From contig JACQXH010000078.1 of the NCBI GenBank assembly GCA_016208845.1, positions 14,605 to 62,487 of the forward strand: a stretch of 47,883 nucleotides of DNA. Direction: 5' to 3'. Positions 6,434 to 24,150 of this stretch are shown here, one piece after another; position 1 is the stretch's first letter, and each line of letters starts with the position of its first letter. Below the pieces are notes generated by a model. It was given only the letters and a program-made list of their open reading frames with translations, did not search any database and was not told where the DNA came from. A program made the position numbers and the translations under genes. The DNA comes from Nitrospirota bacterium (lineage in GTDB: Bacteria > Nitrospirota > Thermodesulfovibrionia > UBA6902 > BMS3Bbin08).

Positions 6434-6550
6434 ACTAAGTTCAACCGCACAGCAAATTCAGGCCCCGAGATTTAAAAAACACTGCGTTTTTCATTCAATC
6501 CCATTAACTTTATGTTATAATCTTGTTATAACATCATCAAGGAGGCAATT

Positions 6551-6799
6551 ATGCATAGAAAAGTATGTTCCATAGGCAACAGTCAGGGGGTCTCCATCCC
6601 TGTTGAGACTCTTGAAAAGCTTAACCTGTCCATCGGTTCTGAGGTAGACGTTAAGCTCGATGAGGAAAGTTCAAGGATCATCATCGAGCCGGTTAAAAAA
6701 AAGAAATACCCCAAAGGCTTAGACAGACAATTTGTATCGCAGGTAAATGAATTTATCGAAAAGTACCGTCCCGCTCTAGTGGAGCTTTCCAAAAAATGA
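6551..6799 (+). CDS. AbrB/MazE (SpoVT)-type antitoxin, partner of the degraded Doc gene
   Basis: VCSIGNSQGVSIPVETLEKLNL is a swapped-hairpin motif. Its stop overlaps the ATG of the downstream Doc remnant (ATGA). Confidence 0.75.
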   Translation: MHRKVCSIGNSQGVSIPVETLEKLNLSIGSEVDVKLDEESSRIIIEPVKKKKYPKGLDRQFVSQVNEFIEKYRPALVELSKK

Positions 6800-7619: not shown

Positions 7620-8819
7620 TTAAAATATCGATATCTTACCAAATACGCCGTCATACCCCGGTGTGACGCTAATATCTCCGCGTCTCATTTTTATTATGCC
7701 GTCTGCAATTTTTCTGTCCGTGATCTCATGAAGGCCGGGCTCCGGCAGGTCCATGAGGATATCGAACTCTGTAGATGACGCGACGAGTCTTTCATATTCT
7801 CTCTTGACCTTTACAGTGTTGACGCCTGAACCAAATGCCTCTGCAATTATTTCCACCAATGGCACCATATGTCTGGAAGGTATTGCGTTGTCAGGGACAA
7901 AACCCCGACTTCTGTCAGCAAGCTCATTGACCCTGTTCATGACGCCTATCGTGAGGTCCTTTTTGCAGACAGGACATCTGTCCCCGTTTTTTTCAGTCTC
8001 TTCCGGAGAAAGCAGGACATTGCAGTCCCTGTGGCCGTCATAATGATATTTGCCCTCTTCAGGGAAAAACTCTATTGTGCAAAGGAAACGATTTTTATCT
8101 TTTTTTCTGATAGCATCAATGACATCAAAATAATCCATTTTACAGTCAAACACATTTGCCTCTCTGCCGAGCTTGCCCGGAGAATGAGCGTCTGAATTGG
8201 ACAGCAGGGTTATTTTATCCAGAGCAGAAAGCCTCCAGTTCATCTCCGGGTCTGAAGAAAGCCCGGTCTCAATGGCATATATATACTTTGAATGATCTTC
8301 AAAACACTCCTCTATGGAGTCAAAACCCGATTTACTTCCGAAAACAGAAAACCAGGGGGTCCATGCGTGCGCAGGAACAAAGAGACAGTCTTCTGAAATA
8401 TCCAGAACTATTTTCAACAGGTCCTTTGCAGGCGTACCCAGGATCGGCCTTCCATCAGAGGATATATTCCCCAGCTTTTGTAATTTGCTATTAATTTTTT
8501 CTGCGATCTCGATGCCTGGCGCCATTATGATATTATGGATCCTTCTAACGCTCCCTTTGAAAGAATAGATACTGCTTATTTCCGCTGTGAGCATGAAAAA
8601 TACTGACGGCTCTGTTGATGTTGTATAGAGGCCGTTGCCTGCAGGTTTGAGGGTTTCTTTTATATTCTTAAAATGAACCGGATGTGTGAAATCACCTGTG
8701 CCTAAAAGATTGATGCCTTTTTTCCTGGCCCACAATGCCATAGTCGCAACATTCATGTCTTTGCTTGTTGCACGGCTATAGCCTGAATGTACATGTAAGT
8801 CAGCTATTATTCTGGTCAT
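7620..8819 (-). CDS. endoQ: Endonuclease Q (PHP-domain, zinc-finger endonuclease acting at deaminated bases)
   Basis: DLHVHSGYSRATSKDM, GTGDFTHP, DGRP, PAHAWTPW, LSNSDAHSPGKLGREANVF, GKYH, CPVC, PLVEII and the C-terminal PGYDGVFGKI run collinear with my recollection of Pyrococcus EndoQ along the whole length. Confidence 0.8.
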   Translation of the reverse strand: MTRIIADLHVHSGYSRATSKDMNVATMALWARKKGINLLGTGDFTHPVHFKNIKETLKPAGNGLYTTSTEPSVFFMLTAEISSIYSFKGSVRRIHNIIMAPGIEIAEKINSKLQKLGNISSDGRPILGTPAKDLLKIVLDISEDCLFVPAHAWTPWFSVFGSKSGFDSIEECFEDHSKYIYAIETGLSSDPEMNWRLSALDKITLLSNSDAHSPGKLGREANVFDCKMDYFDVIDAIRKKDKNRFLCTIEFFPEEGKYHYDGHRDCNVLLSPEETEKNGDRCPVCKKDLTIGVMNRVNELADRSRGFVPDNAIPSRHMVPLVEIIAEAFGSGVNTVKVKREYERLVASSTEFDILMDLPEPGLHEITDRKIADGIIKMRRGDISVTPGYDGVFGKISIF

Positions 8820-8821
8820 AA

Positions 8822-8920
8822 TAAAATCAAAACTTAAATATCATCCCGAACAATCGGGACAAAATTGTGGAAAAATATATTGATAAATATTTTTTAATTT
8901 TGATCTTTGCATTTTAAGAT
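8822..8920. repeat. CAAAA-word hairpin element, same family as the one inside atpF
   Basis: It contains AAAATTGTGGAAAAA, a palindromic loop and TTAATTTTGATCTTTGCATTTT. Compare 42707-42807. The inverted form CCACAATTTT occurs at 15127-15283. Confidence 0.65.
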
Positions 8921-10027
8921 TTAAATTTCCTTTTCATATATCCTGTATTTTTTATAGAGCCTGCCGTTGAAGGTTTCAATTACCCTCTGTACAGGATAGT
9001 TGTCCTCTAATATCCATGAGAACTCAACCCTCTTAAACCCTTTTGCCAGCATGGTCTTAAGCCCTTCAATGAACAGAAGGGAGTCAACCCCCCTCCGCCT
9101 GTACCCAGGTTTTATCCCCAGGAGCAGGAGCCGGAGGTCTTTAATTTTTCGTGAATACCACAGAGCCTTGGGCAGGCCAAGAGGGAAGAGGCGGCCATTG
9201 ATCTTTTTAAGCACAAAATTAAAATCCGGAAGCATCATCATGAAGCCCACTGCTTCACCCTTGCATTCGGCTATCAAGGTAAGCTCGGGGATCATTATCT
9301 GCTTCAACTTCTTAGCTGTGTGGTCGATCTCCTCATCTGTCATGGGAACAAAGCCCCAGTTCTTTTCCCACGCTGAATTATAGATGCCTTTGAAAAGGTT
9401 CATCTCGCTCTTGAAGGCCTTCATGTTAAACGGCCTGGCCGTTATACCCTGTTTTTCAGCAATGCCGGAGACGCGGTAAGCCTTTTCAGGAAGTTTTTTT
9501 GGGACATCTATTATATAGGCAAACAGGTCTTTGGCCTTTCTCAGCCCGCACCTCTCGAATAATTTTTTATAGTAAGGAAAGTTATACGGCATCATTACCA
9601 TGGGCGGCTCTTCAAAGCCTTCTACAAGAAGGCCTAATTCTTCATTTGAAGAAAAATTCATCGGCCCTCTTATAATTGACATGCCTTTGCCTGTGAGCCA
9701 CTGTTTAGCTTTATCCATCAGTGCCTGCGCTGCAAGGTTTTCGTCTACACAGTCGAAGAAACCAAAAAAGCCTGCCTTTTCCTGATGAAAATTTATGTGC
9801 GCCTCGTTGTATATTGCGGCTATTCTGCCGACGGTTTGTCCATTTATCTTTGCGATGAACGATTTTACTTCTGCATGTTTAAAGAACGGATTTTTTGAAG
9901 AGAACTGTTCCCTGACATCCATTTTAAGAGGAGGGCACCATGAGGAATTTTTTGGATATAGTTTAAAAGGCAGATCCAGAAATTTATTAAAGTTTTTTTT
10001 GTTGTCAGCAGGCAGTATTTCGATCAA
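8921..10027 (-). CDS. Two-domain GNAT-fold acyltransferase family protein
   Basis: The C-terminal half has a GNAT motif A-like LLLLGIKPGYRRRGVDSLLF. Substrate unknown. Confidence 0.5.
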   Translation of the reverse strand: MIEILPADNKKNFNKFLDLPFKLYPKNSSWCPPLKMDVREQFSSKNPFFKHAEVKSFIAKINGQTVGRIAAIYNEAHINFHQEKAGFFGFFDCVDENLAAQALMDKAKQWLTGKGMSIIRGPMNFSSNEELGLLVEGFEEPPMVMMPYNFPYYKKLFERCGLRKAKDLFAYIIDVPKKLPEKAYRVSGIAEKQGITARPFNMKAFKSEMNLFKGIYNSAWEKNWGFVPMTDEEIDHTAKKLKQIMIPELTLIAECKGEAVGFMMMLPDFNFVLKKINGRLFPLGLPKALWYSRKIKDLRLLLLGIKPGYRRRGVDSLLFIEGLKTMLAKGFKRVEFSWILEDNYPVQRVIETFNGRLYKKYRIYEKEI

Positions 10028-10131
10028 GTTACGATGTCCGTTTCCCGTCTTTATATTTTATGGTTCTGATTATATCATAAAAAATATAAACCCAAAAGCA
10101 GTCAATGTTATTGACACTTAACCCCTCTCTC

Positions 10132-10204: not shown

Positions 10205-10624
10205 ATGCCGACAGTTCAAAAGAGCATCAGAATTCAAGAAAGAACAATTAAAGAAATTGAGCAAATAGCCAGAGATTCAGGAAAAGAATTTTCTTCCGTA
10301 GCAAATGAATTACTCGAAGAAGCGGTAAGAATGCAGCGCTGCCCCGGCGTTATTTTTACTGAGGGGACTACAGGCCGCAGGGCTCGAATTGCAGGCACTG
10401 GCATTGAGGTTTGGGAGCTTATTGCAACTTATAAAGGAGTGGGTGCGGACTTTAAGCGGCTCCAGAAGGCATATCACTGGCTTACTGATCAGCAGTTGAG
10501 GGCTGCTATTGGCTATTACAGAATCTATGCTGAGGATATAGACCGTCTTATAAAGCAAAATGAAACATTAACCCAGAAGCATGTCCATGAAAGGTACCCA
10601 TTCCTTGACAGAGGTAATCGTTGA
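10205..10624 (+). CDS. RHH plus DUF433 domain protein (putative antitoxin)
   Basis: The N-terminal SIRIQERTIKEIEQIARDSG is CopG/RHH-like. PGVIFTEGTTGRRARIAGTGIEVWELI...LTDQQLRAAIGYY fits DUF433. The stop overlaps the downstream start (TTGA). Confidence 0.65.
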   Translation: MPTVQKSIRIQERTIKEIEQIARDSGKEFSSVANELLEEAVRMQRCPGVIFTEGTTGRRARIAGTGIEVWELIATYKGVGADFKRLQKAYHWLTDQQLRAAIGYYRIYAEDIDRLIKQNETLTQKHVHERYPFLDRGNR

Positions 10625-10974
10625 GATATTACCTTGATGAAGACCTAAGTCCGAAGATAGCAGAAATACTCAGAAAACATCATATAGATGCTATCAGCGC
10701 CCATGAAGTTGGAATGTTGCAGAGAAGTGATAGAGAGCAGCTTGAGCGGGCTTCGTCCGAAAAAAGATGTCTGTTAACCAGAAACAGAAACGACTTTATC
10801 CAGCTGACTGTTCAGTTCTTTAATGAACATCGGCCACATTATGGAGTGCTTATAATTCCGCATACATTACCCGGGGATAAATTTTCCCTTATGGCTAAAG
10901 CTATCATCAAACATCATTCAAAACATTGCAAAGATATATTGGAATCATACACAATTGATTTTCTTGAAGGTTAA
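10621..10974 (+). CDS. DUF5615 (PIN-like/Mut7-C-like) protein, putative toxin
   Basis: MRYYLDEDLSPKIAEILRKHHIDAISAHEVG...LLTRNRNDF is the typical DUF5615 pattern, and it is coupled to a DUF433 gene. Confidence 0.6.
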   Translation: MRYYLDEDLSPKIAEILRKHHIDAISAHEVGMLQRSDREQLERASSEKRCLLTRNRNDFIQLTVQFFNEHRPHYGVLIIPHTLPGDKFSLMAKAIIKHHSKHCKDILESYTIDFLEG

Positions 10975-16785: not shown

Positions 16786-18213
16786 TTAATTCCCCAATTT
16801 CTTTCTCAGCAATTCATTCACTATCTTTGGATTGGCCTTGCCTTTTGTCGCCTTCATTATCTGCCCTGCAAAGAATCCAAGGAGCTTTTCTTCGCCTGCC
16901 CTGAACCTCTCCACTTCTTTAGGACTCTTGCTTAATATTTCATCGACCACTTTTTCGATCTCCGACTCATCGCTTACCTGAATAAGTCCTTTTTCCTTAA
17001 CAATGGATTCAGCGTGTTTGCCCGTCTTATACATCTCTTCCAAAACCGTCTTGCCAATCCTGCCACTGATCGTGCCGTTCTCAATAAGCTTAAGCAATCC
17101 ATCAAGATGTTCTGGGCCTAGGGGACATTCATCGAAGTCTTTGTTTTCCTCATTGAGTATTCTCCTGAGATCGCCTATCATCAAGTTACTTACTGACTTG
17201 GATGACGATCCAAGATTCACTGTTTTTTTGAATAAGTCTGAGCTGGACCTGTTAATAGACAGCAGATTTGCATCATGTTCTGGCAACCCGTGTTGAATCA
17301 AACTCTGTTTTCTTTCGTCAGGAAGTTCCTCAATCCCCTCCTTTATTCTTTCAATCCATGCATTATCTACTTCCACAGGCACAAGATCCGGCTCAGGGAA
17401 ATACCGGTAATCATGAGCCTCTTCTTTTGAACGCATGGATTCCGTGATACCTTTGTTTGAATCCCAGAGGCGCGTCTCCTGAACTATCCTTCCGCCTTCG
17501 TTGAGAATTTTGATCTGCCGCTTTATCTCATACTCAAGCGCCTTTTCAACAAAACGGAAAGAATTCATGTTCTTGATCTCGGTCTTTGTGCCTAATTCCT
17601 TTTGTCCAACAGGCCGGACAGATACATTGGCATCGCATCTTAGCGAACCCTGTTCCATATTCCCGTCGCATACGCCGATATCACGGACAATCGCTCTTAA
17701 TTTTTTTACAAACTCCGCAGCCTCCTGCGGACTGCGTATGTCAGGTTCTGATACAATCTCCATCAGGGGCGTGCCGGCCCTGTTCAAATCAACGAAACTG
17801 TGACTGCCCGCGCCTTCGTGTATGTTTTTCCCCGCGTCTTCTTCAAGGTGGATCCTTGTAAGCCCGATCTTTTTTGTAATTCCGTCAACCGTGATCTCCA
17901 CAAATCCATGTTCGCATATGGGTAGTTCATACTGGCTTATCTGGTAACCCTTCGGAAGGTCGGGATAGAAGTAGTTCTTTCTTGCAAACCTGCTGTAAGG
18001 GGCGATCCTGCAATTTACTGCAAGCCCTGTCTTGATCACATACTCAATCGCCTTTTTGTTCATCACAGGCAAAACACCCGGCATCCCGATGCAGACCTGA
18101 CACGTCTGCGTGTTCGGCTCCGCGCCGAATTTTGTCGAGCACCCGCAGAACATCTTTGAGTCGGTTGAAAGCTGTGCGTGTATCTCAAGCCCTATGACTG
18201 ATTCGTATTGCAT
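16786..18213 (-). CDS. gatB: Asp/Glu-tRNA(Asn/Gln) amidotransferase subunit B
   Basis: MQYESVIGLEIHAQL, CQVCIGMPGVLPV and LHLEEDAGK, with full-length collinearity (475 aa). Confidence 0.95.
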   Translation of the reverse strand: MQYESVIGLEIHAQLSTDSKMFCGCSTKFGAEPNTQTCQVCIGMPGVLPVMNKKAIEYVIKTGLAVNCRIAPYSRFARKNYFYPDLPKGYQISQYELPICEHGFVEITVDGITKKIGLTRIHLEEDAGKNIHEGAGSHSFVDLNRAGTPLMEIVSEPDIRSPQEAAEFVKKLRAIVRDIGVCDGNMEQGSLRCDANVSVRPVGQKELGTKTEIKNMNSFRFVEKALEYEIKRQIKILNEGGRIVQETRLWDSNKGITESMRSKEEAHDYRYFPEPDLVPVEVDNAWIERIKEGIEELPDERKQSLIQHGLPEHDANLLSINRSSSDLFKKTVNLGSSSKSVSNLMIGDLRRILNEENKDFDECPLGPEHLDGLLKLIENGTISGRIGKTVLEEMYKTGKHAESIVKEKGLIQVSDESEIEKVVDEILSKSPKEVERFRAGEEKLLGFFAGQIMKATKGKANPKIVNELLRKKLGN

Positions 18214-18942
18214 TTACGCGTTCCAGTAATCCTTTGACACTTTATAAATCTTTGCCAAATATTTCTCACAGGCTGCTACAATTTTCTCAGCTTCTTTTAA
18301 GTCCTCTTTAGCCGTATCTTCATCAATGGACGTCTGAAAATCATAATCGCCTATCTGCCGCTCTTTAAACAATTTTTTCAAAGTCTTGCTGAACGAGGAA
18401 GAAAATTTTCGTGTCTTGATAAATTCTCTGTTAAATGCTCCTATGGTCTGGCCGTGTGATGAATAGTGCAGTCCCTTTGAAAGCAACACAGCAGAGATGG
18501 CATGAAAGACCGCATAGTAAGAGCGGGATACGGTGTCGTCATAATGATCGTTTTCCAAATTGGTTTTAGCTGTTTTCAGTTTTTCCAGCGCCTTGCCAAG
18601 CATTTGCTTGATAACATCAATATCGCCTGCTTTCATAATTCTATTCCTTCTTTTAGAATGTTTAAACCGCTCATCACATATAATGTCGCCGATTAAGACC
18701 TCATATTTGTTCAGGAAGTCTACGCTTATATTAAGAAGCATATTTTCGTATGCCTTTTTTCTCTTATCAACAACGACCAGAAAATCATAATCAGATCCTT
18801 CATGAAAATCGCCTCTTGCACGCGAGCCGAACAGGATAATGCTTTTGAGGTGATGTTTTAATCTCTGTTTGACACGCCTTGCAAATTCAATGGCTATTTT
18901 GTCTGTTCTTTTTTTCTTCATATATAGTCCCTTGCATGGCAT
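18214..18942 (-). CDS. Fused minimal nucleotidyltransferase (MNT) and HEPN domain protein
   Basis: The N-terminus has LFGSRARGDFHEGSDYDFLVVV (GSx10SDxD). The C-terminus has SRSYYAVFHAISAVLL...FKERQIGDYD, a PF05168-type HEPN. The stop codon directly abuts the gatB ATG. The likely start is ATG 18921. Confidence 0.75.
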   Translation of the reverse strand: MPCKGLYMKKKRTDKIAIEFARRVKQRLKHHLKSIILFGSRARGDFHEGSDYDFLVVVDKRKKAYENMLLNISVDFLNKYEVLIGDIICDERFKHSKRRNRIMKAGDIDVIKQMLGKALEKLKTAKTNLENDHYDDTVSRSYYAVFHAISAVLLSKGLHYSSHGQTIGAFNREFIKTRKFSSSFSKTLKKLFKERQIGDYDFQTSIDEDTAKEDLKEAEKIVAACEKYLAKIYKVSKDYWNA

Positions 18943-18966
18943 CTTGCAGGCCGCCTTTATTTTACC

Positions 18967-21255
18967 TTATTTTTCCATCTGTACACACGAAAGATAATCT
19001 TTCAAAAAGCCTTTCTCAAAAAGCAATCCCTTGAATGACTCAAGCCGTTCTCTTGGATAATTCGCCGGATGCGCTGCGGGATTGCGGTATTTGTCTTTTA
19101 TTTGAAAAAGCTCATTTTTGAAATCAAGAAGTTTTTGTTTCCCATAGGTGTTATTCAAAATAAACTGTGAAAATTGCCACAGTAACTTATCTCCGTCTTT
19201 TGCTTTTTTTGTCTTATCTATCAGTGTGCATATTTCTCCAAGTGTTATCTTTGTGTCGCATACGATAAGCCTGACTTTATCCTGAGTTTTGTATTTTATC
19301 TGACAGCCTGTTGATAAGCAGACGTCAATGATCTTCCTTTTGAATTCATTTTCAATCGCCTTTGCGTATTCGATTGCCACAAAGCCGAATTCATCGGACG
19401 GCGAAAACTGATAGGTGGTATCAAGATGCCGGGCAAGCATGAGGAAGGTCCTTGTGGCTTCATCAAGACTTTTCCATAACTGCGTACCTATCGCACCGTG
19501 ATAATAATCCTGAACGGTCTTGTTGTTGATCTGAGATGCGAATGTTTCATTTTTCTTATGAATGTTCTCAATTATCTTCTCGGTATTTTGAGTTATCAAA
19601 TTCTCAATCGAGCCTTGATTTTCCTTCATGACCTCAAAGATCGCCGTCTGCTTGTCATAAATTTCTCTGAGCATATACGTTTGCAGATCATTTTTTGCAC
19701 TTAAACTTTTGAGTGCCTTGATGATGTCGGACTTTTCCTGAATTTTATTTATAAGAACCTGCAACTGATCGCGCGTGAGAACAAATTGGCCCTTTGATTC
19801 GGTAACATGGGATTGAACCGCCGGAAAATCCTCCTTTGCGACGAGCTCGTAAAACTCGTCTATCTTGTGATACGTCCTTGCATTATGCTCATATTCAAGC
19901 TTTGTTTTTGCCGCCTCAATCTCATTCAGAAAGCCCTGATGTATCGGCAGTCCACGCTCTTGAAGGAGTTTAAACTTTGAGAGGAAGTTGATGCTGTCTT
20001 CGTATGAGTTCAGTTTTTTGGTTGTTTCAATAAAATTATACATCTCTATTACGTCTAAAGGTGTTTCATTGTGATAGCTTTTTTCAAACATACAGGCTGC
20101 ATTAAAAAGAGAGGTCTTCAAACAGGTCATAGATTCTTTGTAAGAACCTTTATTAAAGTAGGTGTTGCTTGCTGCAAAAAAACCTTTAGCTGCTCTAAAT
20201 GGATCACCAAGTTCCTCCATATCATATATTGAGGAAATAACTAAATATTCCAGTGGGCAGATTTCTAAATCATCTTTAAAGATTAAAGAGGCATTGAAGG
20301 CTAATTCGTTATTGATTTTATTATTTTCGTGCAGTGTATTGTAGAAGTCTTCAAGGAAAACAGAGTTGATTCTGCTTCCCAGTGGTTTGTACTCTATATC
20401 ATACCCTTCCCAAAATATCGTATCAGCATAGTCAATACCTGCCATGATTTGGTCTAAACTGGTTTTAGGGATAGCATCGAGTATTGCATTGCATACATCA
20501 GAAAAAGGACCTTCTATCTCGTATCTTAGGTGAAGAAGTCCACATAACTCATGAAAGTTTAATTCTTTGTCTTTTAACTTAGAAGACATGTATTGATTGG
20601 CTATTTTGTTTACCCCTTGATTCTTGTCCAATTGTTTAAAAGGATATGCTTTAAAAAAATTATTAATATCTTCATCAGGATATTCTTTTAAAATAGGGCA
20701 ATGATCAAAGACTATTTGTATAGCAATGAGCTCCAAAAGACCGTGTTTTGCGATTATCAATTTGAGGCAAGTTATGAAAAATACTTTAACTTGGGAATAA
20801 TTAATATTACTTGTAGTTGAAGACTCTTTGCTTTCTTCTGCTGGAATTGCAGGTAGTAATAGATGTGCATCATCTAAGAACCTATCATCCCCAAAGCACG
20901 TTGCATTACAGTCCTGTAGCCATTCCTTCCCAAAAAATACCCCAATATTACTTAACTCATATATCTGCTGAGCAAAATATTTATTTATTCTAAGTGGTTC
21001 TCGTTGTTTCCAGGTCCAATGCATCTCTGTCGAACTATTAATAAGGAAGCGGTTTATCTCCTCAACATTCGCTGTTTCAATACAACGGATAATGCCTTTG
21101 GCATAGTCGCTTTTGGGATCGAACTTGCCTTCCCGAATCTTCAGTATCAGCAGCTTTGTCAATGTCTCAAGATCATCAGGACTTGTTTGTAGCTTTTTAC
21201 GGAAAGCCTTCTCTTCGGAAGATTGGTTTGCTTTGAATGGAATTATCTTGCCCAT
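18967..21255 (-). CDS. Orphan 762-aa protein with a C-terminal HEPN-like module (RNxxxH)
   Basis: A long uninterrupted ORF in an AT-rich segment. I recognise no N-terminal family. The last ~170 aa read LDEATRTFLMLA...AIEYAKAIENEFKRKI...KDKYRNPAAHPANY, which is the helix-1 A/E pattern plus the Rx4H of Abi/DUF4145-type HEPN domains. Confidence 0.6.
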   Translation of the reverse strand: MGKIIPFKANQSSEEKAFRKKLQTSPDDLETLTKLLILKIREGKFDPKSDYAKGIIRCIETANVEEINRFLINSSTEMHWTWKQREPLRINKYFAQQIYELSNIGVFFGKEWLQDCNATCFGDDRFLDDAHLLLPAIPAEESKESSTTSNINYSQVKVFFITCLKLIIAKHGLLELIAIQIVFDHCPILKEYPDEDINNFFKAYPFKQLDKNQGVNKIANQYMSSKLKDKELNFHELCGLLHLRYEIEGPFSDVCNAILDAIPKTSLDQIMAGIDYADTIFWEGYDIEYKPLGSRINSVFLEDFYNTLHENNKINNELAFNASLIFKDDLEICPLEYLVISSIYDMEELGDPFRAAKGFFAASNTYFNKGSYKESMTCLKTSLFNAACMFEKSYHNETPLDVIEMYNFIETTKKLNSYEDSINFLSKFKLLQERGLPIHQGFLNEIEAAKTKLEYEHNARTYHKIDEFYELVAKEDFPAVQSHVTESKGQFVLTRDQLQVLINKIQEKSDIIKALKSLSAKNDLQTYMLREIYDKQTAIFEVMKENQGSIENLITQNTEKIIENIHKKNETFASQINNKTVQDYYHGAIGTQLWKSLDEATRTFLMLARHLDTTYQFSPSDEFGFVAIEYAKAIENEFKRKIIDVCLSTGCQIKYKTQDKVRLIVCDTKITLGEICTLIDKTKKAKDGDKLLWQFSQFILNNTYGKQKLLDFKNELFQIKDKYRNPAAHPANYPRERLESFKGLLFEKGFLKDYLSCVQMEK

Positions 21256-21290
21256 ATGATATGTTGTTTATTCTTTCTTGTAATTATCTA

Positions 21291-21746
21291 TTAAAACAAC
21301 TTCTTCTGCGGGTTTGCTTTTTGTATCTTATCCATGATTTCTTTAACAAACTTGTTAGCGCTTTCGAGAGATTTTGCAACCTCAGTTCTGGAAATAGGTC
21401 TTTCAGGTTCATATATGAAATCGTGCCTTTTAATCCTCATCCGGTTAAATCTTTCCGTTAGATTTCTGAAATCCCCGCCGAGTATCTCTTCGCAGAAGTC
21501 TACAACCGTCTTATGCTGGTTTCTGCCTTTCGGGCGATAACCCGAAAAAAACATTAAAGCCCTGCCTGCCCTGAGCATTGCATGATATGCGATTGTATAA
21601 GCCCATTCTTCGTCTATATTGATAGTTGCCTTTGAGGTAATTAAATCTTTGCCGGCACGTTTAATGTTGGAGATTATTTGCTTATCATTATAGGATATCT
21701 TTTCTATCAGACCCTGTGTTTCAAGCCTTTTTAAGCTCACGCTCAT
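21291..21746 (-). CDS. HEPN domain protein (putative toxin)
   Basis: AYTIAYHAMLRAGRALM... and RMRIKRHDFIYE (Rx4-6H). It overlaps the upstream MNT gene by 26 nt. Confidence 0.65.
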   Translation of the reverse strand: MSVSLKRLETQGLIEKISYNDKQIISNIKRAGKDLITSKATINIDEEWAYTIAYHAMLRAGRALMFFSGYRPKGRNQHKTVVDFCEEILGGDFRNLTERFNRMRIKRHDFIYEPERPISRTEVAKSLESANKFVKEIMDKIQKANPQKKLF

Positions 21747-22308
21747 CCCCTAACAACATAATTTTCTCATCTTTCAGCACATCCATAATAAACCCATCTT
21801 TTGCTTTTTTCTTAGTCAGGAACTCTTTGTAATCATAAATTATGTGATTTATGGTCCTGCCTGACATTTTCTCAAGACCGTTTATTTCCGAATCAAGCTT
21901 GTCAAAATCAACATCTCCGATGATTATCAGATCAACATCACTGTCTGCCTTTTCCTCTGCTTTTGCAAACGAACCATATATAAAAGCGAACTTAACAGCC
22001 GGAAGATTTTCTATTACAGTCTTAATCTCGCCGATAACCCCGACTGTTTTAAGAATAAGGCCTTTCAGCTCATTAAAAAAAGAACAATTCCTGTTCGTCT
22101 GAAAATACTTAAGGTTGCCATGTCTTGATGATGAAAGAATTCCGGCTTTTTCGAGAGCTGCCAGTTCGCGGCTGAGATTTGTAGAGTCTTCTTTAAGGAT
22201 GGTTGCAAGCTGGCGGACAAAGAAGCTTTCATCGCTGTGCGTGAAAAACCATGACAGCGCCTTTGCCCTGGTCCTTGAGCCAAATATTTTTTCTATTGCC
22301 TGTCCCAT
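21721..22308 (-). CDS. Winged-HTH plus nucleotidyltransferase (MNT) protein (putative antitoxin)
   Basis: The N-terminus is ArsR-like (FVRQLATILKEDSTNLSRELAALEKAGIL). The C-terminus has IYGSFAKAEEKADSDVDLIIIGD. Confidence 0.7.
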   Translation of the reverse strand: MGQAIEKIFGSRTRAKALSWFFTHSDESFFVRQLATILKEDSTNLSRELAALEKAGILSSSRHGNLKYFQTNRNCSFFNELKGLILKTVGVIGEIKTVIENLPAVKFAFIYGSFAKAEEKADSDVDLIIIGDVDFDKLDSEINGLEKMSGRTINHIIYDYKEFLTKKKAKDGFIMDVLKDEKIMLLGDERELKKA

Positions 22309-22463
22309 AGGTTATAGTAAATATTACTGCAATTGCAGTTTATATTACTGCAATCTATAGGTTCTGTCAACGCAGTTCTTTACAACTCCGGCTTTCTCTT
22401 ATGCCACCCGGTATCCTGCTCATAAGCATAAGCAATTTTCAAGATCGTTTCTTCATCAAAATG

Positions 22464-23861
22464 CTACCCGATTATCTGCAGGCCGATGGGTAAATTACCA
22501 GAAGAAAAACCGCAGGGGATGGATATGCCCGGCACTCCTGCGAGGTTGACCGATATCGTGAAAATATCTGCAAGATACATATGAAGCGGGTCATCAGTCT
22601 TTTCTCCAGACCTAAATGCCGGAGTTGGTGATGTCGGCGTGACTATCACGTCTGCTTTTTTAAATGCATTTTCAAAATCCTGTTTTATCAAGGTCCTTAC
22701 CTGCTGCGCCTTTTTATAGTATGCGTCATAGTATCCTGAGGACAATGAATATGTGCCGAGGATTATCCTCCTCTTTATCTCTGCGCCGAACCCTTTTGCC
22801 CTTGTCTTCATGTACATGTCCAGCAGATCATTGCCTTCTGTTCTTGCGCCATATTTTACCCCGTCATATCGTGCAAGATTGGATGAGGCCTCAGAGGTAG
22901 CGATTATATAATATGCGGCCACTGCATAGCCTGTATGCGGGAGCGATATCTCAACAGGAACAGCCCCGAGGGCTTCAAGTTTTCTGATCGCCTGTTTTAC
23001 GGATTCTTCCACCTCTTTGTCTATGCCCTCAATGAAATATTCACTTGGAATTCCTATTCTCATGCCTTTTATATCACGCCCGAGCCCCGAGGTAAAATCA
23101 GGCACTGCTATAGGTGCCGATGTTGAATCATCAGGGTCATGGCCTGAAATAATATTCATCAGCATAGCAGAATCTCTAACGTTTTTTGTAATAGGCCCAA
23201 TCTGGTCAAGAGATGAAGCAAAGGCAACAAGGCCATAACGGGAGACCCTTCCATATGTAGGCTTCAACCCTACAACCCCGCAGAATGATGCGGGCTGGCG
23301 TATCGACCCGCCAGTGTCAGAACCTAAAGCGGCAATGCACATATCCGATGCAACCGCAGCAGCCGACCCTCCGCTTGAGCCGCCCGGCACTGTCTCAAGA
23401 TCCCACGGATTGTGTGTACGGCCGAAAGCGGAATTTTCCGTAGATGAACCCATTGCAAATTCATCGAGATTGGTTTTACCGATCAGGATGAAGCCCTGGT
23501 CTTTTAATTTCTGTGTGACTGTGCTTTCATAGGGCGGAATAAAATTCTCAAGGATCTTTGATGAGCACGTAGTCCTGATACCATCTGTGCACATGTTGTC
23601 CTTCACAGCAAGGGAAATGCCGAGCAGCAATCCCCTGTCGCCATTTTTTATGCGGCCCTCTGCATCTGTTGCGCGGGCTAATGCGTGTTCTCTGGCAATG
23701 GTCACATAGGCCTTTATCTTGGGCTCTACGGAATCTATTCTCTTGAAGAGTGCGTTTGTCAGCTCAACAGGACTGATCTCGCCTTTATCAAGGGCTGTCC
23801 GTGCTTCGTGAATACTTAAAGTATGCAGTTCCAAGTCTCCTCCGGGAAAAATAAAAATCAA
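22464..23861 (-). CDS. gatA: Glu-tRNA(Gln) amidotransferase subunit A, ending at a premature in-frame TAG
   Basis: Amidase signature [12 protein letters not shown] and the [10 protein letters not shown] Ser-cisSer-Lys region. The ORF ends at ...IGLQIIG-TAG, and 27 further in-frame codons (HFDEETILKIAYAYEQDTGWHKRKPEL-TAA, down to 22380) encode the normal GatA tail. The real start is probably TTG near 23834, after GGAGGAG. Confidence 0.9.
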
Positions 23862-23880
23862 ATATCAATATTAAGGATTT

Positions 23881-24016
23881 CTAAATAGAGTCTGTTTATA
23901 AAGTGCCATAAGTCACTGGTTACGTCATTGCCGCTTGTCGGGAATCCTTCTGAAAAAAGATTCCGGACAAGCCGGAATGACAGCAAGACAGGAGTTTATA
24001 AACAGACTCTAAATAG
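23881..24016. mobile_element. Complete palindromic MITE with ~22-nt terminal inverted repeats
   Basis: The left TIR is CTAAATAGAGTCTGTTTATAAA (23881-23902). The right TIR is TTTATAAACAGACTCTAAATAG (23995-24016). The core palindrome is GTCATTGCCGCTTGTCGGGAATCC...GATTCCGGACAAGCCGGAATGAC. Confidence 0.85.
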
Positions 24017-24150
24017 AGTCTGTTTATAAATATCGCTAAATGTCACCCTGAGCCTGTCGAAGGGTGAGAAACTGCTTAATCCATCTCATGGTTCGACAAG
24101 CTCACCATGACAAGCTGGATATATCACGCATCTTATAAAAAGATTCTATT
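24009..24150. mobile_element. Second MITE with the same left TIR and a different cargo, overlapping the first head-to-tail
   Basis: CTAAATAGAGTCTGTTTATAAA (24009-24030), then GTCACCCTGAGCCTGTCGAAGGGTGA, then GGTTCGACAAGCTCACCATGAC, then a degenerate right TIR CTTATAAAAAGATTCTATT. The cargo words recur at 30421-30535. Confidence 0.7.

Follow-up and report, generated by a model that had tools for sequence, protein, structure and literature searches.

The gatA and gatB genes of a Nitrospirota bacterium (GTDB lineage Bacteria; Nitrospirota; Thermodesulfovibrionia; UBA6902; BMS3Bbin08) are separated by a horizontally acquired islet of four genes. The islet occupies positions 18214-22379 of the stretch analysed here, a 47,883-nt segment of assembly GCA_016208845.1 (contig JACQXH010000078.1, positions 14,605 to 62,487, forward strand) referred to below as the window. 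From the gatA side it encodes a minimal nucleotidyltransferase (MNT) fused to a winged helix-turn-helix (wHTH-MNT), a 151-aa HEPN protein, a 762-aa protein and a single-chain MNT-HEPN fusion, and all six genes, gatA and gatB included, are co-oriented. The initial annotation, made from the sequence alone, had described the four co-oriented open reading frames (ORFs), the 26-nt overlap between the wHTH-MNT and HEPN ORFs and the direct contact between the last islet stop codon and the gatB start, all of which are present where it placed them. Its picture of two nucleotidyltransferase/HEPN modules bracketing a large unannotated protein was upheld by the Pfam domain calls, and the RNxxxH motif that it noticed near the C-terminus of the 762-aa protein is RNPAAH (aa 724-729), invariant in every full-length relative. 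To the explanation that we prefer we give about an even chance: the locus would be an acquired toxin/defence islet in an insertion hotspot, in which a toxin-antitoxin (TA) pair and a fused MNT-HEPN protein accompany a 762-aa abortive-infection-type effector, the MNT/HEPN modules being its probable partners.

The islet differs from its surroundings in composition. Its GC content is 0.379, whereas 355 other segments of 4166 nt average 0.448 and none is below 0.398, which makes the islet the lowest-GC 4.2-kb block of the window, and GC at third codon positions is 0.39-0.43 in the islet versus 0.47-0.52 in gatA and gatB. The AT-richness first seen by eye is thus confirmed by computation. Eighty GatB-anchored loci were collected from species-representative genomes, and gatA was then located in them. 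The gap between the two genes is 15-180 nt in most Nitrospirota/Thermodesulfovibrionia loci having both (five have 243-609 nt) and 3-105 nt in many Bacillota, in agreement with the initial proposal that the four genes had been inserted. Gaps of 15-243 nt were found in 12 Nitrospirota relatives. In three related Nitrospirae metagenome-assembled genomes (MAGs; loci L012, L015 and L029), a spacer insert of ~580 nt encodes a pair of 66-aa RelB/Phd-like and 110-aa RelE/ParE-like proteins (6437-6958 in L012, 6455-~6975 in L029 and the same spacer in L015, where the RelE/ParE-like toxin is split by a frameshift), and in another Nitrospirae MAG (L019, 6470-6945) the spacer is filled by the gene of a 159-aa protein whose N-terminus bears a prepilin-type methylation motif. 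The independent MAG GCA_016207885.1 (L001) has the order gatA, 762-aa homolog, MNT (105 aa), HEPN (134 aa), gatB; its homolog (7818-10094; HY807_00470, annotated as 697 aa) has its true start ~60 codons upstream, with the conserved N-terminus MAKIIPFKQ. These cargo states are patchy on a rough neighbour-joining tree of GatA and GatB, on which the window and L001 are not sisters. The varied and patchy cargo of the relatives shows that in this Nitrospirota lineage the gatA-gatB spacer, with a conserved essential gene on either side, is a hotspot that has taken up cargo repeatedly. No convincing direct repeats or target-site duplications were found flanking the islet. As a separate observation, the L021 spacer consists largely of a tandem heptamer, (TTAACTA)n, located near 6515-6560 and ~60 nt before gatB.

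The gatA ORF as listed (22464-23861) ends at an in-frame TAG (22464-22466), where the GatA of L001 has Lys (AAG). Past this codon the gatA frame stays open and conserved for another 27 codons until it reaches the TAA at 22380-22382, and the true gatA-islet spacer is therefore 71 nt and not 155 nt. This stop in an essential gene may have arisen by a recent nonsense mutation, may vary within the population or may come from faulty assembly. This odd codon and the metagenome-assembled source are the points that speak for an assembly chimera, which the initial annotation had envisaged at the junctions. Such an artefact is scarcely credible, since the independent L001 MAG carries a 762-aa homolog in the same spacer, and since gatA and gatB stand in the expected order and orientation with the last islet stop abutting gatB in a consistent frame.

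Some HEPN toxins of MNT/HEPN pairs cleave tRNA, and the position of the islet had suggested a link to tRNA-dependent transamidation, for instance through HEPN RNases that would target the tRNAs used by the Glu/Asp-tRNA amidotransferase GatCAB. The HEPN toxins of MNT/HEPN pairs are RNases, the mechanism of separate-gene HepT/MntA having been described (PMC7641770), and 762-aa family genes with MNT/HEPN modules are placed inside gatA-gatB in two genomes. However, most relatives have nothing in this spacer and others have RelE/ParE TA genes or a pilin-like gene there, and both the 762-aa homologs and the wHTH-MNT/HEPN pair are found at unrelated sites, which for the homologs include a cobalamin operon, a defence island and the neighbourhood of a methyltransferase (see below). 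A functional tie to the amidotransferase is on these grounds very improbable, and this part of the initial annotation found no support.

The islet is not merely passively transcribed, for the spacer downstream of gatA has a strong promoter-like site and operator palindromes. The leader holds the sequence TTGACA-N17-TAATAT at 22370-22342, which matches 10 of the 12 consensus positions and is among the best of the region, and it is overlapped by a tandem pair of operator-like palindromes spaced 21 nt apart (22316-22354; repeats D8 and I1). In L090, the wHTH-MNT gene (80% identical) is preceded by an identical -35/-10 spacing and likewise by two tandem palindromes, whose half-sites differ slightly. 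This conserved architecture indicates that the islet brings its own promoter and operator, and the predicted promoter is most likely autoregulated by the wHTH. No promoter or terminator was found separating the islet genes from one another. At the other end of the islet, the TAA of the MNT-HEPN fusion abuts the gatB ATG at 18213 with zero gap in the junction sequence, and the GGAG-type Shine-Dalgarno spacer kept by all 17 other gatB genes compared is absent before the gatB of the window. This junction suggests that gatB translation may be coupled to that of the last islet gene. With an abutting upstream stop and no Shine-Dalgarno spacer of its own, gatB plausibly depends on expression through the islet, as the initial annotation had proposed for its transcription; that proposal has to be qualified, however, by the promoter-like site that the islet itself carries.

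The wHTH-MNT protein gives, besides its Polbeta/NTP_transf_2 domain, weak Pfam matches to ArsR/MarR-type winged helices. It matches the PADLOC model PDC-M05A (PDLC04368) over positions 5-194 of its 195 aa, and the adjacent 151-aa HEPN matches PDC-M05B (PDLC04374; E-values in Table 1). PDC-M05 is a nucleotidyltransferase and HEPN pair resembling TA modules, whose antiviral role is unconfirmed and its validation pending (PMC12988326). As in that candidate system the two genes are adjacent and overlap, but here and in three other loci a large third gene follows the pair within 35-50 nt, and PDC-M05 is defined without it. The type VII TA modules (HepT/MntA) are comparable in having a GS...DxD minimal nucleotidyltransferase beside a HEPN gene in a tight or overlapping operon. 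The catalytic GS-x(9-10)-DxD motif is intact in both MNT parts of the window (YGSFAKAEEKADSDVDL in wHTH-MNT and FGSRARGDFHEGSDYDF in the fusion), whose nearest solved relatives are the MNT structures 7ae2 and 5yep. By contrast, the window HEPNs appear to be of the UPF0332/AF0298 type (PF05168) with R-x4-Y and not of the DUF86 type with Rx4HxY (the motif region of the 151-aa protein reads RMRIKRHDFIY), the MNT of the first pair is fused to a wHTH, and the scores with the NCBIfam MntA equivalog NF047752, 28.0 bits for wHTH-MNT and 32.5 bits for the fusion, are both under the 60-bit cutoff. Judged by sequence, both MNT modules are relatives of the type VII TA modules and not equivalogs, and wHTH-MNT is predicted to be antitoxin and autorepressor at once.

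The last islet gene is a single ORF of 242 codons, whose product contains the Pfam domains NTP_transf_2 (aa 19-67) and HEPN (aa 113-227). Against the PDB it matched 9xbd_A (1.1e-14), 2hsb (1.9e-07) and, for the MNT part, 7ae2 (2.2e-04), its HEPN half being closest to the UPF0332/AF0298 type; the motif RQIGDY (R-x4-Y) aligns with RNRSDY of 9xbd and has no His. A fused MNT-HEPN protein, FhepTA, has been studied in Shewanella, where the MNT domain oligo-AMPylates a Tyr beside the RNase motif and so blocks dimerisation (PMC13000451). Like FhepTA, the window protein joins MNT (N-terminal) and HEPN (C-terminal) in one chain and is carried by a mobile region; unlike it, it comes from another HEPN subfamily, has R-Q-I-G-D-Y instead of RphixxxH and counts 242 instead of 276 aa. 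That it might be the ortholog of the split MNT and HEPN genes of L001 was considered and rejected, as tblastn gave no match at 1e-5 and identity was ~13-23%. The initial annotation had recognised no named system in the architecture. This stands for the four-gene set, which was not seen elsewhere, but not for its parts, as the first pair matches PDC-M05A/B and MNT-HEPN fusions are described.

Calling the 762-aa protein an orphan was too strong, since both a small family and a wider superfamily sharing its C-terminal domain exist. The family forms 10 clusters in a collection of 5.8 billion sequences and has 33 representatives with E <= 1e-3 among 1.84 billion proteins. Its N-terminal peptide MGKIIPFK is conserved, and the alpha-solenoid behind it is fast-diverging: identity to homologs is 24-40% over aa 1-230 compared to 59-85% over aa 401-586, and aa ~400-586 are the best-conserved stretch of the family. 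In the AlphaFold2 (AF2) model the predicted local distance difference test (pLDDT) values of the solenoid are mostly 70-95, and Foldseek of the full 762-aa model returned only generic TPR/solenoid matches (best E 1.2e-3), none of them significant. From this model the solenoid is predicted to be a sensor or partner-binding part. Residues 461-586 were modelled as long helices with pLDDT below 50, and short relatives give weak coiled-coil-type matches, which suggests an oligomerising coiled coil that would need partners. The C-terminal domain modelled alone from 23 sequences reached a pLDDT of 90.9 and is all-alpha with a beta-hairpin insert. E635-x-E637, G673 and Y723-R724-N725-x3-H729 are invariant in more than 50 diverse sequences, distant relatives included; the YRNxxxH motif falls in a lower-confidence loop of the domain model.

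This C-terminal domain is shuffled among several architectures. It is common to Firmicutes proteins of ~300 aa, to short coiled-coil proteins and to a larger family whose ~292-aa members begin with a zinc ribbon (157 clusters; Actinobacteria, Burkholderia and others), and it is fused to an Eco57I-type methyltransferase together with the same coiled coil (P0040) and to TPR proteins (P0041). No Pfam domain was found in the C-terminal domain shared by the ~300-aa, ~292-aa, P0040-type and P0041-type relatives. As a side observation, the zinc ribbon (CFRCG...CNGCYG; N-terminal ~60 aa of P0055-P0172, alignment A6) matches mt-LAF7, a mitoribosome assembly factor of trypanosomes (7aoi_XA, E 2.4e-05). 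The contexts of the domain are those of mobile elements and defence throughout. Short proteins carrying it are encoded on an Exiguobacterium conjugative element (an integrative and conjugative element with MobL and ArdC), adjoining a DUF4145 protein, as well as in a prophage-like element and at the edge of an integrase island. Downstream of a complete type VI retron (SP_VI, HTH_VI, RT_VI), members of the Burkholderia cepacia complex (L103-L106, 5172-7879) encode a 65-aa HTH protein and then the 292-aa P0083, which carries the YRNxxxH domain; the retron cassette lies at different genomic sites, and P0083 is outside the PADLOC definition of retron VI. Full-length family members occur in similar company. 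In L095-97 (201-3951 in L095) a type II N6-adenine methyltransferase (PADLOC 1.5e-210) is followed after 17 nt by a family member (752 aa in L095) and then by a KilA-N protein; this neighbour and the P0040 fusion suggest a branch of the family linked to restriction-modification. In L006 the homolog comes after an HTH_3 gene. In L005 (8001-11953) a 778-aa member and a Schlafen/AlbA_2-HATPase_c_4 protein, co-directional, lie in a cobalamin operon between CobS/CobC-like genes and CbiA. L005 is a second case of the 762-aa family inside a housekeeping operon.

Closer to the window, six informative loci carry 762-aa homologs of the near clade (49-62% identity). In the window itself the wHTH-MNT/HEPN pair lies upstream and the MNT-HEPN fusion downstream of the 762-aa gene. 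In L007/8 and L090, a wHTH-MNT (75-80% identical) and a HEPN (83%) are followed after 39 nt by the 762-aa homolog (52-55%); in L098 a divergent wHTH-MNT (28% identical, PDC-M05A at 1e-15) and a 135-aa protein precede it; in L001 the homolog is followed by MNT and HEPN; and in L002-4 it stands between a DUF433/PIN-like TA and SIR2 inside a GmrSD/HEPN_RiboL-PSP/Fic island. An adjacent MNT/HEPN pair is thus present in five of the six, from four MNT/HEPN lineages, and this recurrence suggests functional coupling. Regarding the co-occurrence of the genes, the exact four-gene set was found in no other locus; what recurs is the wHTH-MNT/HEPN/762-aa subset, in L007/8, L090 and L098, and the 762-aa gene with MNT and HEPN in L001.

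The competing view is that three independent selfish or defence modules piled up in a permissive hotspot and travel together without functional interaction. TA and defence genes tend to cluster, the gatA-gatB spacer takes unrelated cargo, and the family has no MNT/HEPN neighbour in L002-4, L005, L006 and L091-L097; moreover, PDC-M05 stands alone as a two-gene candidate (PMC12988326). It is difficult to reconcile with this view that the order and the 35-50-nt spacing of wHTH-MNT, HEPN and the 762-aa family gene are conserved at four loci (the window, L007/8, L090 and L098), one of them with a 28%-identical MNT, and that no promoter or terminator separates the islet genes. Likewise, the four MNT/HEPN lineages adjoin 762-aa homologs and are nearly absent from the rest of the 1.22 Mb of collected loci, mostly housekeeping sequence and not TA islands, in which jackhmmer found MNT genes only beside 762-aa homologs, except one 7.5 kb off in L003 and two in the Bacillota locus L052. 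We consider chance accumulation doubtful on balance, and it remains a substantial rival in view of the distant homologs without MNT/HEPN modules. At the opposite extreme, wHTH-MNT, HEPN and the 762-aa protein could form one three-component defence system in which MNT and/or HEPN silences the effector, e.g. by nucleotidylylating the invariant Tyr next to the motif, until a trigger sensed by the solenoid releases it, the C-terminal domain then being a new, as yet unannotated branch of HEPN-like nucleases used in several systems, among them methyltransferase-linked and retron-adjacent ones and those borne by integrative and conjugative elements or prophages; so tight an arrangement seems rather unlikely.

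Returning to the preferred explanation, an effector accompanied by MNT/HEPN partners, the effector role of the C-terminal domain is argued for by the invariant YRNxxxH, ExE and G residues, the domain shuffling, the mobile and defence neighbours, weak HEPN-type matches and an overlap with the PADLOC model 'TPR' (PDLC02907). R724-N-P-A-A-H729 fits the HEPN signature R-[NDH]-x3-H and is kept in every relative covering the site. Sub-threshold matches of the domain were obtained with Hypoth_Ymh (0.006), Csm6_HEPN (0.03), Abi_2 (0.11) and PADLOC AbiD (0.004); the RN..H motif is spanned by those with Hypoth_Ymh, Abi_2 and AbiD, no position being given for that with Csm6_HEPN. HEPN-type families, among which we count Hypoth_Ymh, make up 3 of the 11 weak Pfam matches. 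With the HEPN-type abortive-infection effectors (AbiD/F Abi_2, Hypoth_Ymh/TIGR02391, DUF4145 and Csm6 HEPN), the domain shares an all-alpha composition, an R-N-x3-H that follows small residues and a preceding helix with an acidic residue, as well as the association with restriction-modification methyltransferases, mobile elements and TA genes and the weak local matches at the motif. It differs from them in that all matches are sub-threshold with no significant fold match. Particular to the 762-aa family are its ExE signature, a beta-hairpin insert and a coiled coil that always precedes the domain. As for PDLC02907 (864 positions), its last ~170 positions are homologous to the C-terminal domain in P0052 (1.9e-08) and P0037 (7.9e-07), and its overall architecture, a helical-repeat N-terminus followed by this domain, is that of the 762-aa protein; the window protein and its full-length relatives, by contrast, have no match to it even at E up to 1. 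A literature search for a defence system behind this model found none.

Several results weigh against the preferred explanation. No usable PADLOC, Pfam, NCBIfam or PHROG model match was obtained for the 762-aa protein. Foldseek of the C-terminal domain model against PDB and BFVD gave nothing significant (best E ~1, 2jpu; Csm6 at E 2.9, TM-score 0.37), and the profiles A2 and A6, run against PDB sequences at E up to 10, gave nothing for the C-terminal domain, the A6 matches being confined to the zinc-ribbon N-terminus of the ~292-aa relatives or having E >= 0.09. The hhalign comparisons of the domain with the classical HEPNs of the locus, the RiboL-PSP HEPN and DUF4145 were insignificant. Both classical HEPNs are of the UPF0332 type with R-x4-Y and no clean Rx4-6H, so their own RNase activity is uncertain. 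Finally, coupling is not obligatory, given that MNT/HEPN neighbours are missing from six loci of more distant homologs and that the definition of PDC-M05 comprises two genes only. Regarding the initial suspicion of a HEPN fold with its catalytic dyad, the domain appears to bear a HEPN-like catalytic signature, and its fold is unconfirmed by Foldseek, Pfam or PDB searches. These failed structural and profile searches, for HEPN or any other nuclease, and the lower-confidence loop around the motif would also fit a binding or regulatory YRNxxxH domain without nuclease activity, the 762-aa protein then serving as scaffold or regulator. We find this quite unlikely, because E, E, R, N and H are strictly invariant across very divergent sequences, the domain is shuffled like an effector among mobile-element and defence contexts, and the sub-threshold matches fall specifically in HEPN-type families.

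The following scheme for the islet would be compatible with these observations. The four genes would be expressed as one co-directional transcription unit from their own wHTH-repressible, sigma70-type promoter and by read-through from gatA, and gatB would be translated by coupling to the last islet gene at the TAA/ATG junction. In the PDC-M05/type VII-like pair, the MNT would neutralise its HEPN partner by nucleotidylylation while the wHTH autoregulates the operon. In the 762-aa effector, the fast-evolving N-terminal alpha-solenoid may recognise a trigger, the conserved coiled coil may oligomerise the protein and the ExE/YRNxxxH C-terminal domain may act as a HEPN-like nuclease, probably an RNase, with phage defence as the presumed outcome. 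The single-chain MNT-HEPN and the first pair would both behave as type VII-like TA or addiction modules; with respect to the 762-aa protein, the MNT/HEPN modules could be addiction modules, regulators or a second effector and not chance neighbours.

Table 1. Features of the gatA-gatB region, listed in the direction of transcription (positions in the window).
Feature	Positions	Strand	Evidence
gatA (Amidase)	22380..23861	minus	Pfam Amidase 6.7e-160; start uncertain, ~23834-23861
Islet leader with promoter-like site and operator-like palindromes	22309..22379	minus	Sequence and comparison with L090
wHTH-MNT, 195 aa	21721..22308	minus	Pfam Polbeta 4.5e-10, NTP_transf_2 1.8e-07; PADLOC PDC-M05A 2.9e-53
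HEPN protein, 151 aa	21291..21746	minus	Pfam HEPN 3.4e-06; PADLOC PDC-M05B 5.7e-14
762-aa ORF (HY758_03905), whole	18967..21255	minus	No Pfam match
762-aa protein, aa 1-460: MGKIIPFK and hypervariable TPR-like alpha-solenoid	19876..21255	minus	AF2, Foldseek, conservation
762-aa protein, aa 461-586: predicted coiled-coil oligomerisation module	19498..19875	minus	Conservation, AF2 long helices
762-aa protein, aa 587-762: C-terminal domain, predicted HEPN-like nuclease effector	18967..19497	minus	Invariant columns, AF2 model
Invariant E635-x-E637 of the 762-aa protein	19345-19353	minus	Alignment
RNPAAH motif, aa 724-729 of the 762-aa protein	19069-19086	minus	Alignment
MNT-HEPN fusion, 242 aa	18214..18942	minus	Pfam HEPN 1.1e-20, NTP_transf_2 1.9e-11
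gatB	16786..18213	minus	Pfam GatB_N 1.5e-131, GatB_Yqey

Outside the islet, Rfam and tRNA scans of the whole window gave no match. Upstream of gatA, a low-GC segment (23880-24030) contains a 23-nt element, TCTAAATAGAGTCTGTTTATAAA, as a perfect direct repeat present twice, together with inverted copies that include a perfect 17-nt palindrome at 23995-24030; a terminator-like hairpin (23960-23978) sits between the copies. The window also encodes a second TA-like pair on the plus strand (10205-10974), in which a DUF433 gene (139 aa) overlaps a DUF5615/PIN_10 gene (117 aa). A pair of these same two families lies directly 5' of the 762-aa homolog in L002-L004.

None of these findings overturns a current idea; they provide a lead for the discovery of defence systems in uncultured Nitrospirota. 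If the preferred explanation is true, a rare effector family and the wider superfamily of its C-terminal domain (over 150 clusters, without relatives in Pfam or PDB) would join the repertoire of candidate anti-phage proteins, and PDC-M05, a common candidate system, would gain a concrete three-gene context. The locus would also represent a hotspot flanked by core genes within an essential operon, where cargo turnover has rewired gatB, its ribosome-binding spacer having been lost.

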